Shown piece by piece: positions 16,965 to 44,559 of a stretch of DNA of 64,000 nt (positions are counted from its first letter, which is position 1; each line of letters opens with the position of its first letter). Below the pieces are notes generated by a model. The model worked only from the letters and a program-made list of their open reading frames with translations. It made no database searches and was not told where the DNA came from. Source of the DNA: Eledone cirrhosa (Eukaryota); contig OZ024755.1 of NCBI GenBank assembly GCA_964016885.1, positions 32,488,001 to 32,552,000 of the forward strand, in the 5' to 3' direction. Made by a program: the position numbers and the translations under genes.

Positions 16965-16967
<3 letters not shown>

Positions 16968-17178
16968 CAAAAGGGATATATTCAATTTGTTGGTAATTCA
17001 ACAAATATAAATGTTTATAACTGATTCAGAGCACTCGACAAGTTTCTGGAGTATAATATTCAATGATATTAAATAAATGGAAACTATATTTATAAAACCA
17101 TATTTATTCTTATATTTCAAGGGTACCAAAATTTTGGTACGCTATCATCAGATAAAATACAAAGTTTGTTTTATAAAT
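16965..17178 (-). mobile_element. Hammerhead-bearing element, family H1, between (TA)n tracts (stem III/I' partly deleted)
   Basis: Minus strand reads TATTTTAT-CTGATGA-TAGCGTACCAAAATTTTGGTACCCTT-GAAA. Homologous to the copies at 17780, 36590 and 43865-44525. Confidence 0.7.
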
Positions 17179-17200
17179 TTATATATATATATATATATAT

Positions 17201-17425
17201 ATATTTATTAAAATAACAGATTAAAGTTTAAGCAAAGAATCGCTGCTTTCCCCCTTAACGGGATCTTCAGAAGATCCCGTTAAAGGTGAAAGCAGTGATT
17301 CTTTGCTTAAACTTTAATTTGTTATTTTAATAAATATTTGCTCTCCGGTTCTTATATATTTGATATATTTATTCTTATCGAGCCCTCTTTGGATTTTAGT
17401 CTACCAATTTATTATTATTACTATA
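17201..17425 (+). mobile_element. Family H3 PLE-like end with a 137-bp palindrome centred in the hammerhead core
   Basis: Arms 17201-17268 and 17270-17337; homologous to 35257-35330. Confidence 0.7.
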
Positions 17426-17491
17426 TATGAATATATGAATATATATGAATATATATGAATATATATACATATATATATATATATATACATA

Positions 17492-17653
17492 ACACTGTAA
17501 ATGTGGTTGGTGTTAGGAAGGGCATCCGGCTGTAGAAAACCTGCCTATATGAGCGAGACATGGTCACCCGACCAATCTTGCCTCAAATGGAGCAATTCCC
17601 ATCTAACCCATGCTAGTGTGGAAGATAGACGTTTAAACAATGATGATGATGAT
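17492..17653 (+). mobile_element. 5'-truncated SINE/RTE tail within (TA)n
   Basis: GGTTGGTGTTAGGAAGGGCATCC domain and a (GAT)n tail. Confidence 0.8.
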
Positions 17654-17743
17654 ATATATTTATGTGTGTGTATACATATATATATACTTTGTTTTTGTAT
17701 ATGTTTTGCAAGATTTACTAGCAGCATGACTCTCCCAAAGTAT

Positions 17744-17782
<39 letters not shown>

Positions 17783-17910
17783 AAAGTTCTATTTAAAATT
17801 GTTGGGATACAACAAGTAAATATTTTTATAACTGATATAAAGCACTCGACAAGTATTTGGAGTAGATATGCGATATTAATAAATGGAAACTATATTTATA
17901 AAACCATATT

Positions 17911-17975
17911 TATTTCATTATACATATTTCAGGGATACCAAATTAAATTATGATATGCCTTCATCAGACAAAATA
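17911..17975 (-). ncRNA. Type I hammerhead motif, family H1 (element about 17780-17985)
   Basis: Minus strand reads UAUUUUGU-CUGAUGA-AGGCAUAUCA..UGGUAUCCCU-GAAA-UAUGUAU-A-AUGAAAUA. Confidence 0.7.
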
Positions 17976-18214
17976 CAATATATAACAGTTTTACAAATAA
18001 GCTTTGACGTACCCTTTTAAAATGCAACCATTATTTTTGGAAGTCATCCAGAGAAACCAATGATAAAAACCATTGGGTGGTGGACAGGTTTGTGTATCTT
18101 GGCAACACCTTAAGTGTACCATGCAGCCTTGACAATGAAATGTCATCAAGGATCATATAATTATATACTATATACTTGATTAGTATTTATTTTATTGACT
18201 TTAAATGAAAACTA

Positions 18215-18510
18215 ACCATTAGCATTTACATTACTCTATATACACTATTATATTTTCGCAGAAAATGCTTTACCTCACATCATATCTCACATAATATTGA
18301 ATTTATGAGATTTTGATTTAATTTATTTTCAGAACAATACCTTAACATAAGCTTGCAGCCAGTGACGTTGCAACTCATTTCTACAGCTGAGTAAACTGGA
18401 GCAACGTGAAATAAAGTGTCTTGCTCAAGAACACAATGCAAAGCCCGGTCTGAGAATCGAACTTACAACCTCAGGATTGTCAGTCCAGTGCCCTAACCAC
18501 TAAGCCATGT
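18215..18510. mobile_element. Partial MITE P (+) followed by a CORE-SINE head (-)
   Basis: Homology to other copies in the window. Confidence 0.75.
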
Positions 18511-19544
18511 TAAGAACATAGATATCTGTGGAATACTGAACAGGCTGTTCCATTGATTGAAACAATTTGAATGCCCATCGTTTGATTTGACAGAATGCCA
18601 GCAATAACATAAAAATATTATATATGCTTCCAGATACACCTCTATTATGAATCATGCTGTGTTAGTGCTACTGCTAATATTATATATATTGTATGGTATG
18701 CTAGACTTATCAAATGTATGTAATAAAGTATACATGTAATAGAATACTAATGAGCAATTAACGAAGCTCATTTAGGCATGCAATGGAAATAAGTGCAATT
18801 TCGTTTTGCAGCTGAGAAATCTAAATCTTTTGGCTTGGTTTCCATAATTATATGGTGTTGATGATTTCATGCTGTTTTCAATATTATGAGAAAGAGTCAT
18901 CTTCCTTAGTGGCAGATGTGTCAGTTACTTGATTCTTGATAAGAAATGTTATATAAAATGAAAGAATGTAGAAAATAATAAAAAAGAAGACAGTTCTTGA
19001 AAATAGGAATACTAGTTTGTTTAGTATGCATATCAAGAGACTGAACGGTGATGGAATATGTTTTAGAATAGGTAGACCATATAACTGCATGTTTTAGGAG
19101 GTTACTAAAAGGGTAGGTGTCAGGAAGGGTATTCGGCTTTAAAACATTGTTTCAAAACATCCCTTTTGACCTTTGCCAGAATAGATTGCAGAAACGATGA
19201 TGATGATAATGATGATGAAATAAAGTGTCTTGTTCAATGACACAAAATACTGCATGATCCAAGAATTGAACTGATGATTTTATGACTGTGATCCCACTAC
19301 CCTAGCCATTATGCCATGAGACTTCACATCTCCCAGCAAGCATGAATAAACCCTGACCAAAATGTTACTTAACTAAAATAATTCAGATTTGCAAGAGATA
19401 GTAGAACTTTAATAGGAAACAAAAGAAGGTTGAACATTGATGCTTTGATATATCCAGTTATATTAATACTTATTTTAATTATCTAGATTATGACCATCTT
19501 TTCTCCATTCTGATAGTCCTAATATCTTTTGATCTGTAATCTTT

Positions 19545-19825
19545 CATTTCATTCATTTTACGTCTGCTTTTTCCCTGTTTGCAAGGGTGGGACGGGAACT
19601 GATTCTGGCTTGATTTCTACAGCTGGATGCCCTTCCTAACACCAACCTCATTTACAGTGAGTGCTGGATGCTTTTTTGCCATGGCACCTCCACGACCACT
19701 TTGCAGTGGAATGATAGGGACCCCAGTCCCTATCATCACATTTCTACAGCTGAGTATACTGGAGCAATGTGAAATAAAGTGTCTTGCTCAAGGAAACAAC
19801 ACATCACCCGGTCTGAGAATTGAAC
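19545..19825 (-). mobile_element. CORE-SINE family B lacking most of its head
   Basis: Reverse complement of 6955-7235. Confidence 0.88.
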
Positions 19826-42445: not shown

Positions 42446-43193
42446 TGGTGGTGATGGTGGTGGTGGTGATGGTGATGATGGTGGTGGTGGTGGTGATGGT
42501 GGTAGTGGTGGTGGTGGTGGTGATGGTGGTGGTGGTGTTGGTGATGGTGGTGGTGGTGATGGTGGTGGTGGTGGTAGTGGTGGTGGTGGTGATGGTGGTG
42601 GTGGTGGTGGTGGTGGTGGTGGTGGTGGTGGTGGTGGTGATGATGGTGATGGTGGTGGTGGTAGTGGTGGTGGTGATGATGGTGGTGATGGTGATAATGA
42701 TGATGATGGTGGTGGTGATGGTGGTGATGGTGTTGGTGATGGTGGTGGTGGTGATGGTGGTGGTGATGGTGATGGTGGTGGTGGTGGTGGTAGTGGTGGT
42801 GGTGATGATGGTGGTGGTGGTGGTGGTGGTGATGGTGGTGATGTTGGTGGTGATGGTGGTGGTGATGGTGATGGTGGTGGTGATGGTGGTGGTGGTAGTG
42901 GTGATGGTGGTGATGGTGGTGATGGTGGTGGTGATGGTGGTGGTGATGGTGGTGGTGGTGATGGTGATAATGGTGGTGGTGGTGATGGTGGTGATGGTGA
43001 TGTTGGTGGTGATGGTGGTGGTGGTGGTGGTGCTGATGATGGTGGTAGTGGTGGTGCTGATGATGGTGGTGGTAGTGGTGATGGTGGTAGCGGTGATGGT
43101 GGTGGTGGTGATGATGATGATAATAGTGATAATGATGACGACAATGATGATAATGATGGTCATGTTGATGATGATGATGATGATAATGTTGAT
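42446..43193. repeat. (GGT/GAT)n trinucleotide block
   Basis: Direct reading. Confidence 0.97.
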
Positions 43194-43292
43194 TTGAACA
43201 TATGAAATATTCCAGTGATATCACCCACCCACATATATATATATTAATCTAACAATGATAAAAGCTAATCTATCAGTAGGATATCTCATGTG

Positions 43293-43384
<92 letters not shown>

Positions 43385-43387
<3 letters not shown>

Positions 43388-43705
43388 GCACATGGCTTAG
43401 TGGTTAGGGCATTGGCCTTGCAATCGAAAGGTTGTGAGTTCAATTCTCAGACCGGGTGATGTGTTGTTTCCTTAAGCAAGACACTTTATTTCACATTGCT
43501 CCAGTTTACTCAGCTGTAGAAATGAGATTCCACTGCAAAGTGGTCGTGGAGGTGCCACGGCAAAAAAGCACCCAGCGCTCACTGTAAATGAGGTTGGTGT
43601 TAGGAAGGGCATCCAGCTGTAGAAATCAAGCCAGAATCAGTTCCCGTCCCACCCTTGCAAGCAGGGAAAAAGCGGATGTAAAATGAAATGATGATGATGA
43701 AATGA
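43385..43705 (+). mobile_element. CORE-SINE family B after (TC)n(TA)n, followed by a 5'-truncated family C SINE (43730-43870)
   Basis: Near-identity to 6903-7247. Confidence 0.9.
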
Positions 43706-43905
43706 TATATATACATTATATTAATAAATGGAGTTACGGCCCTTGCCATTCTGAGTTCAAATCCCGCCGAGGTTAACTTTGCCTTTCATCCTTACGGGGG
43801 TCGATAAAATAAAGTACCAGTAATGCACTGGGTAATTGCTGACCTTGTGCCTAACGTAGAAACAATTATATTAATAAATAGAAACTATATTTATAAAACC
43901 ATAAT

Positions 43906-43971
43906 TATTTTATTATATATATTTCAAAGGCAACCAAGGCAAATTTTGGTGCGCTTTCATCAGATAAAATA
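43906..43971 (-). ncRNA. Type I hammerhead motif, family H1, intact core
   Basis: Minus strand reads UAUUUUAU-CUGAUGA-AAGCGCACCA..UGGUUGCCUUU-GAAA-UAUAUAU-A-AUAAAAUA. Confidence 0.72.
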
Positions 43972-44322
43972 CAAAATTTGTTTTATAAATGTTGACATAC
44001 CCGCTGAAGAACAATCTTGACGGTTGGAGGTTCGTTGGATAATTATGGTTTTATAAATATAGTTTCCATTTATTAATATAATGAATATTTACTCCACCAA
44101 TCTGTTGAGTGCTTTATATCAGTTATAAAACTTTTAAGCTTGTTGAATTCCAACAAATTAAATATAACCATTGCATATATATATATATATGTAGAAGTTA
44201 TATTTAATTTGTTGGGATACAACAAGCAAATATTTTTATAACTGATATAAAGCACTCAACAAATTTTTGGAGTAAAAATACAATATATTAACAAATGGAA
44301 ACTATATTTATAAAACCATATT

Positions 44323-44387
44323 TATTTCATTATACAAATTTCAAGGACACCAAAGCAAATTATGGTGAGCTTTCATCAGATAAAATA
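44323..44387 (-). ncRNA. Type I hammerhead motif, family H1 (stem III mismatch)
   Basis: Inverted partner of 44421-44485. Confidence 0.6.
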
Positions 44388-44420
44388 TAATATAATATAA
44401 ATCAGTATAGATCTATATTA

Positions 44421-44485
44421 TATTTTATCTGATGAAAGCGCACCATAATTTGCTTTGGTGTCCTTGAAATATGTATAATGAAATA
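44421..44485 (+). ncRNA. Type I hammerhead motif, family H1, intact core
   Basis: UAUUUUAU-CUGAUGA-AAGCGCACCA..UGGUGUCCUU-GAAA-UAUGUAU-A-AUGAAAUA. Confidence 0.72.
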
Positions 44486-44523
44486 AATATGGTTTTATAA
44501 ATATAGTTTCCATTTGTTAATAT

Positions 44524-44559
<36 letters not shown>

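Follow-up and report, generated by a model that had tools for sequence, protein, structure and literature searches.

Junctions of a Hydra-clade Penelope-like retrotransposon family in Eledone cirrhosa suggest twin priming at two internal sites of one RNA

We report that the AT-rich hammerhead repeat H1, found in a 64,000-nt stretch of the Eledone cirrhosa genome (assembly GCA_964016885.1, contig OZ024755.1, positions 32,488,001 to 32,552,000 of the forward strand; hereafter the window, in whose numbering coordinates are given), is almost certainly the pseudo-long terminal repeat (pLTR; a type I hammerhead plus a tail) of a Penelope-like retrotransposon (PLE) of the Hydra clade. Its copies end predominantly at two 3' sites, E1 and E2, and 86 of the 87 cleanly classified head-to-head pairs of H1 and its relatives combine one E1 arm with one E2 arm (p ~1e-24). 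We consider it probable, with a real margin of doubt, that H1 copies arise by twin priming, where both ends of a cut (TA)n tract prime on one uncleaved, likely capped RNA. H1 is a new family within a known clade, and the PLE tail, the inverted pLTR and (TA)n targeting have been published before.

An earlier note on the window, made from its sequence, had proposed a single fixed 3' end joined to (TA)n and target-primed insertion into such tracts. For the ends, we used the first 100 copies on contig C1 that carry an exact 30-nt hammerhead word, a selection blind to the 3' end; matched exactly throughout the genome, this word gave 3,389 copies and its reversed control none. Fixed ends joined to (TA)n were indeed found, at two sites rather than one: 55 of the 100 copies end at E1 (+96..+105 from the hammerhead core position C3), 37 at E2 (+190..+195) and 8 elsewhere, and the copies that had been taken to lack the far end stop at E1. 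(TA)n follows the 3' end in 89/100, which supports target-primed insertion. The interval between E1 and E2 (~93 nt) corresponds to the PLE tail. Where copies read through, the element's own sequence is TA-like at both ends (ATATAT, GTAT), so that junction and target share microhomology over a few bases.

Three to six nt 3' of each end lies one copy of a duplicated motif, RCTCC-N9-11-GAGYGCT, closed by an A-U pair in copy 1 and a G-C pair in copy 2. The motif was present in 15/15 leaders examined (13 from H1 subfamilies), and shuffled leaders gave one match in 1% and two in 0.013% of cases; the global fold of the leader was not better than that of shuffles (z -0.29). By eye, motif 2 stands just 5' of the ATG in 28/30 loci chosen by the start of the open reading frame (ORF) described below, in one of them with a later repeat insertion between motif 2 and the ATG, and the hammerhead lies 234-250 nt 5' of the ATG in 17/30. 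Of the sister families, D gave no match in a pattern search for read-through past E2 into motif 2, and a related leader in L114, with a tentative link to the C/D end, has one motif. In family K, whose protein is ~30% identical, motif 1 or motif 2 closely follows 16 of 17 distinct ends, and the remaining one reads through. This distant Hydra-type family with two ends (L117:7170-7510; L057:400-720) has a hammerhead of its own, with stem III ACCACTGGT, and possibly a third motif copy 5' of the ATG. Published Hydra consensus sequences in which we saw the motif by eye come from a coral, a sea cucumber, the copepod-labelled Crog and an octopus: it occurs twice 5' of the ATG in Hydra-1_Ajap, comes after TA-rich sequence in the Hydra-2_Ajap and Hydra-1_Crog tails, is carried by the Hydra-2_Amil tail and is found less exactly in the Hydra-1_Obim leader.

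The two ends are combined in a strict manner in inverted copies. For H1, 51 pairs are E1+E2, made up of 41 of the 59 rows given by the script, a further 9 settled on reading the sequence, and L299, which was added by hand; among the hand-corrected pairs, L256, L280 and L288 had been called E1+E1 by the script and were read as E1+E2. The other 9 rows were left out, L214 (near-E2) and L218 (complex) together with seven lacking a classifiable partner end (L233, L241, L255, L265, L278, L279 and L282), and no clearly homotypic H1 pair was found among the classified rows. Families C and D gave 30 E1+E2 and one E2+E2 among 34 rows (three with one unclassified end), and family B five E1+E2 among nine (four with one unclassified end). 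All four pairs in the window are E1+E2. The arms of a pair are related: an arm resembles its own partner (0.935) more than random partners (0.904; permutation p < 1e-4, 23 pairs), and partner arms have private variants in common.

One alternative, which we consider unlikely, is that the same element makes the inverted arm by fold-back (self-priming) of the first cDNA or from an antisense template, and that the endonuclease (EN), or TA microhomology at the joining of the second end, fixes E1. Palindromic junctions have led to a proposal of self-priming (PMC3846280), and PMC8557442 proposes that EN resolves the tail, each in the sections drawn on here; the private variants common to both arms fit this alternative, as do ~9 pairs in which the E1 arm is contained in the E2 arm and the short fold-back-like segments in 8/100 copies considered below. 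For the 11 pairs with disjoint arms it is contradicted: there the tail encloses the whole of the E2 arm, and neither arm can have been copied from the other. Also against it, the E1 arm reaches further 5' than the E2 arm in ~35/50 pairs (by hand), many of the long arms that bear the ORF end at E1 with the tail on the short inverted arm, solo E1 and solo E2 copies both exist, and E1 and E2 stand at equal offset from the duplicated motif.

The 5' ends had been described as ragged, and this was not borne out: 31/100 start in the range -3..+5 around a single base that lies 83-89 nt 5' of C3, and 26 of these 31 fall in a single 5-nt bin, where most other bins hold 1-4 each. Of the other copies, 26 begin more than 15 nt downstream of the preferred base and 31 extend further upstream. 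The preferred site is the A of ACTATCC, or of ACTGCC in families C and D, and resembles an initiator (Inr) element, and in families C and D a TATA-like box, TATATAAA, lies at -32, as judged against the consensus positions of Inr and TATA elements. Genome-wide, (TA)4 is joined to ACTATCC 278 times, against 14 times at a site 17 nt downstream (13 for the reversed control of the latter). Copying of a cap by reverse transcriptase (RT) gives an extra G, and the base before ACTATCC, where the template has C, was T in 66, G in 19, A in 9 (7 sites) and C in 6 of the first 100 listed, counted by hand; G exceeds C with p 0.017 against the local background. An earlier local count for H1 had G in 4/19 rows, some of them templated variants, and in families C and D a G precedes 11/17 untemplated junctions, the templated variant on the minus strand of L195 being left out. 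We infer from these sequence features a capped RNA start at the preferred 5' end. Transcription from within a pLTR (PMC2377424) and a TATA plus TCACT in a pLTR (PMC3846280) are noted in the parts of those papers used here.

Other junctions touch the same site. Where both arms begin at the start (37960-37980 in the window; L029, L270), the junction reads GGCAGTCTGCC or GGATAGTCTATCC, consistent with two cDNA ends, each bearing one additional C, having annealed. At L105:6710-6740 (C1:427112010) there is a direct duplication at the putative start site with G at the join, as expected of a template jump from a capped 5' end; the pattern of such offset jumps matched only this locus genome-wide, giving no support for them as a common route. 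The ribozyme cleavage site (~+49) shows no peak of 5' ends among partner arms, with 2 near the cut, and the family D pair at 37861-38180 was inserted with both arms lacking the ribozyme 5' half. For these two reasons, ribozyme cleavage does not seem to set, or to be needed for, these insertions, and uncleaved RNA is the likely template.

In the twin-priming reading that we favour, the RNA would begin at the preferred 5' end, the element's protein would cut both strands of (TA)n, and the cut 3' ends would anneal to the UAUAU just upstream of each motif on the same RNA, each motif acting as a hairpin that would position the RT. A protein dimer might serve both sites, as suggested by the AlphaFold dimer reported for PAc, the Poseidon element of Anolis carolinensis. 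Both cDNAs would be made in the same direction and would terminate prematurely or on reaching the RNA 5' end; joined head to head, they would give the short inverted copies; longer copies would require a tandem, circular or jumped template. For a Poseidon protein, cutting and extension of both strands, two internal RT starts and no need for ribozyme cleavage are described in the part of PMC11167929 on which we draw. Whether the scheme extends to the whole clade, with a duplicated RT-positioning hairpin in Hydra PLEs whose two copies one ribonucleoprotein would use on a single capped, uncleaved RNA to prime both ends of a cut (TA)n, one DNA end per site, we regard as evenly balanced. If it does, the PLE tail and the inverted pLTR would both stem from such programmed twin priming, and the short copies would represent products of a strong-stop type that run to the cap.

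Rather improbable, and marginally more so than fold-back, is twin priming that draws on two separate RNAs from a common source, where an asymmetric protein complex or an ordered reaction would let the first nick use one site and the second nick the other. The E1+E2 rule and the common variants would be explained equally well, strand displacement would be dispensable, and the lack of significant shortening of E2 arms fits; an extra rule would be needed to bar the second RNA from using the same site, whereas one RNA with tandem motifs yields the E1+E2 rule without an added assumption. The data do not separate one RNA from two of the same source locus, and this is one of several points that weigh against twin priming on one RNA as set out here. 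Arms of 110 nt or less made up 15/41 of the E2 arms and 4/21 of the E1 arms, not a significant difference (Fisher p 0.24), so that there is no sign of RT collision on one template. The B, C and D sets were chosen by a query holding one of the two ends, one clear E2+E2 pair exists (L173), and the complex L218 is readable as E1+E1. Gene conversion could be an added source of arm similarity. In eight of the 100 copies a short inverted segment stops without reaching E1 or E2, and four of these eight join (TA)n-like sequence, which implies that fold-back copying or later deletion also occurs. Furthermore, the H1 motif hairpins have little predicted stability (-3 to -6 kcal/mol) and are backed by a single compensatory pair; H1 shows a modest excess of G, with too few real junctions at the downstream site for a G control; and the PAc start is not homologous to the cut DNA (PMC11167929, in the part used), while the H1 sites match (TA)n over a few bases.

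The earlier note had treated H1 as a stand-alone element and suggested that a parental ORF with RT and GIY-YIG domains might be reached by extending the longest copies 5'. The second idea proved right and the first was not borne out: walking upstream from H1, copies continue into a 3' untranslated region (UTR) of 1.3-2 kb and then into an ORF on the sense strand, giving the layout pLTR, 5' leader, RT-linker-GIY-YIG ORF, 3' UTR and pLTR. Intact natural ORFs of 732-745 amino acids with a pLTR on both sides are present in several subfamilies of 70-93% mutual identity, and the closest named homologues are from one octopod and one bivalve. The sister families at 30915 and 37862 have their own ORFs (~40-74% identity by segment). 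A short open frame that spans the pLTR was put down to chance. At L067:2400-7600 two near-full-length copies stand head to head, both running from pLTR to ORF, and the arms of this inversion exceed unit length.

These ORFs bear directly on the reading of H1 as a non-autonomous unit (retrozyme, SINE, i.e. short interspersed element, or MITE, i.e. miniature inverted-repeat transposable element) with ends set by hammerhead cleavage or terminal inverted repeats. Most copies are indeed only 120-300 nt and without an ORF, and animal retrozymes are reported as pLTR-derived in the portion of bioRxiv 10.64898/2026.07.22.740005 used here; the reading is nevertheless refuted by the copies continuous with the 3' UTR and ORF, and neither end lies at the cleavage site, so that we give it hardly any weight. 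Specifically, a non-LTR retrozyme (tandem head-to-tail, no ORF) was rejected as the copies are solo or head to head and linked to an ORF, the direct duplicate L298 being the one exception to the lack of tandem monomers, and a MITE (fixed unit with terminal inverted repeats) as arm lengths and inversion points differ between copies.

The protein combines a predicted telomerase-like RT with a GIY-YIG endonuclease domain recognised by its motifs. An AlphaFold model built with 100 homologues had a predicted local distance difference test (pLDDT) score of 90.6, compared with 32.8 for the single-sequence fold. Its top structural matches are telomerase RTs over residues 1-481 (Foldseek 3du5, E 5e-9; structure comparison Z 17.1, root mean square deviation 3.9, 298 aligned), and the model thus predicts a telomerase-like RT within a single ORF, as in EN+ PLEs; Pfam and PDB sequence searches gave no match for the RT. 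In the C-terminal GIY-YIG domain, VVY-x-YVG, R..H, E and N are invariant in 101/101 aligned homologues, and the homologue P0001 passes the Pfam GIY-YIG model. The pLTR likewise shows the EN+ PLE traits of partial tandem arrangement, an inverted 5'-truncated copy and an optional tail.

Placement in the Hydra clade rests on motifs and on a by-eye comparison with published reference proteins (PMC8557442 supplement, in part). The Hydra RWK motif appears as RIRWRA in most copies (RIRSRA in L333), DKT replaces DKG (within SDKT), and the CxCX5C linker lies at residues 604-612 of L333, with its cysteines invariant in 101/101. The endonuclease is without a CCHH-like pattern and has CxxC at 702 and CxH at 729, beside the conserved E and N. 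The combination of a pLTR hammerhead with (TA)n insertion is also a Hydra-clade trait. The length below 3 kb, typical of the clade and not strict, was not seen: L106 and L333 measure ~4.0-4.3 kb because of the 1.3-2 kb 3' UTR.

The H1 hammerhead is of type I, with the core CUGANGA..GAAA..UH and covariation in its helices: stem I of 8 bp (with a probable extension of weak covariation), CUGANGA, stem II, GAAA and stem III. Stem II consists of 3 bp, a C-C mismatch and 6 bp, and occurs in the three variants described in the earlier note (GCACCA/TGGTGT, GTACCA/TGGTAC, GTACTG/CAGTAC). The selection on structure that it proposed is upheld by 16 subfamily representatives, in which 7/9 stem II pairs change on both sides and 0/500 shuffles match the score, counts of this kind being inflated by sequence relatedness. 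In these representatives 95.2% of cells are paired, against 40-51% in slid controls, and pairs 75-104, 78-101 and 79-100 have each changed more than once on a tree built without stem II. RNAalifold recovered stem II and did not recover stems I and III. By eye, a possible helix linking the regions at -78 and +72 was noticed. The stem III palindrome, AUAUAUAU or the wobble form AUAUGUAU, holds for most copies and is broken in those at 17151 and 44379. Of the 161 Rfam matches in the window, none of the 150 that were listed is a hammerhead, these being microsatellite-driven miRNA and tRNA-like matches only.

In monomer folding the ribozyme fold lies 4-11 kcal/mol above the minimum free energy, and the stem III self-duplex is worth -2.2 to -3.2 kcal/mol. 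The lack of a hammerhead fold in the monomer fits the proposal that PLE ribozymes cleave as dimers (PMC4209133, in the part used). Dimeric cleavage of H1 is therefore plausible, and folding is predicted to need a dimer or a protein. The hammerhead is under structural selection, and likely acts at a step other than these insertions.

All eight copies and both relatives listed in the earlier note are present in the window at the places given, with hammerhead cores (C3) at 17151, 17967, 31024, 36771, 43963 and 44379 on the minus strand and at 44429 on the plus strand. Three copies are solo, starting at 16962, 17774 and 30916, and all three are on the minus strand. The first, a pLTR plus tail of subfamily B at 16962..17177 (C3 17151), has a broken stem III and an E2 end joined to (TA)n at 16870-16965. 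The second, a pLTR plus tail at 17774..18043 (C3 17967) whose E2 end is also joined to (TA)n, belongs to the subfamily of the intact elements L333/L334, with 95.6% identity to L333. The third is a pLTR of sister family C at 30916..31091 (C3 31024), which starts 1 nt inside the putative start site and has an E1 end joined to (TA)n; the family C parent ORF (L350) is 53% identical.

The remaining copies form the head-to-head pairs 36582-36995, 37861-38180, 43862-44180 and 44186-44530. The first joins an E2 arm (36582..36809, minus strand, C3 36771) to an E1 arm (36810..36995, plus strand) that starts exactly at the presumed start ACTATCC and has its core C3 changed to T (site ~36893). The second, of sister family D, whose parent ORF is present in L361, joins an E1 arm (37861..37970, minus strand), which starts at the presumed start site with the hammerhead 5' half deleted, to an E2 arm (37971..38180, plus strand) with the same deletion. 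In the third, the E1 arm (43862..44041, minus strand, C3 43963) is followed at its 3' end by a different repeat, likely a later insertion, and its E2 partner (44039..44180, plus strand) begins at ~+54, past the ribozyme. The fourth, which shares (TA)n 44176-44191 with the third, joins an E2 arm of the youngest subfamily (44186..44409, minus strand, C3 44379; 98-99% to 39 other listed copies) to an E1 arm (44410..44530, plus strand, C3 44429) whose end is joined to (TA)n. The top 40 matches to the 44190 copy have 98-100% identity, which marks the family as young. Hairpin motif 1 (ACTCC..GAGTGCT) lies directly 3' of E1 at 44091..44113 on the plus strand, with further sites at 38085-38112 (plus strand) and at 44251-44273, 36642-36664, 17841-17863 and 17030-17052 (minus strand). 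A fragment of the H1 3' UTR without ribozyme, absent from the earlier list, is at 61246..61378 (plus strand); it breaks off soon after the putative start site, and a SINE-like repeat comes next.

Several neighbouring features were seen in addition. At 17205-17340 there is an inverted pair of another hammerhead family (core CUGAAGA, 4-bp stem II, longer stem III), probably another PLE family, fragments of which adjoin H1 in L012, L034 and L089. A dispersed repeat starting TTGTTTCTAC (43750-43873 in the window; L106, L110, L226, L328) has repeatedly inserted at ATAAT sites within H1, the ribozyme cleavage site included. The (TA)n that borders one PLE copy can itself receive another, often in a tail-to-tail arrangement, and this builds nested clusters such as 43862-44530 (see also L114 ~7345, L021 ~2890, L190 ~1740 and L200). 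Pieces of endonucleases from other PLE clades occur close to H1 copies at L002:2349-3104, L043:257-724 and L055:3-338. Finally, tRNA-like Rfam matches near or just under the cut-off (6906-6973, 18450-18507, 46893-46950, 58363-58420) are probably heads of tRNA-derived SINEs, and long homogeneous minisatellites occupy 947-2617, 3797-5149, 9284-11783, 23888-26623 and 52122-53774, with periods of 40, 53, 72, 181 and 48.

As a repeat family H1 is ordinary, and its value lies in the mechanism seen in its junctions. How PLEs come by their tail and by their tandem and inverted structures is listed as open in PMC8557442, and a single PLE has so far been reconstituted (PMC11167929), according to the sections of these papers used here. 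The H1 family supplies thousands of young copies and intact ORFs, and its junctions make PLE integration directly testable through four rules that can be counted: a pair of start sites, a motif at each of them, a single site for each DNA end, and a 5' end marked by G. Since telomerase has the PLE RTs as its sister group, a template-positioning hairpin would bear on template choice by telomerase-like RTs. The strict E1+E2 rule, the duplicated motif and a cap-derived G in PLEs were not found in the literature searched, of which few subscription papers formed part, and the portions consulted of a 2026 octopus repeat annotation do not mention hammerheads or Hydra.

In LINE-1 twin priming, two primers from a staggered cut copy one RNA, which results in a 5' inversion; the first primer is placed at the poly(A) end and the second at variable internal sites. 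In H1, by contrast, both sites are fixed and internal.

Comparisons with published PLEs refer to the parts of each paper on which we draw. Like the minimal hammerheads of metazoan PLEs with a palindromic helix III (Cervera and De la Pena 2014, PMC4209133), that of H1 is of type I with a long covarying helix II, a short palindromic helix III, an unstable monomer and many solo or opposite-strand copies, and it differs in the conserved C-C mismatch after three pairs of helix II, in the lack of an extra base before 10.1 and in its 8-bp helix I with a probable extension. With the Hydra clade of Craig et al. 2021 (PMC8557442), which includes Hydra-1_Obim, H1 shares the RWK-type motif, DKT, the CxCX5C linker, a C-terminal GIY-YIG without CCHH and with CxxC/CxH, the pLTR hammerhead, (TA)n insertion, the inverted 5'-truncated copy and the tail at one end; the published protein alignment agrees with the H1 ORF block by block (by eye). 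H1 is nevertheless another family than Hydra-1_Obim (2,507 bp, 'no pLTR'), with another hammerhead; its full copies reach ~4.0-4.3 kb where the clade is 'generally <3 kb', and its tail is ~93 nt compared with 30-40 nt. The sections of PMC8557442 used here do not mention a duplicated motif, strict E1+E2 pairing or a G-marked 5' end.

A mechanistic parallel is PAc (Frangieh et al. 2024, PMC11167929), which has two internal RT starts bounding the tail, both strands cut and extended at an AT-rich target, uncleaved RNA as the main substrate and a need for sequence 3' of the start sites; the same features are predicted for H1. They differ in that the PAc starts lie 111-118 nt inside the ORF at an AC-rich stem-loop, whereas the H1 sites are in the 5' leader, and in that each H1 site has a downstream motif of its own.

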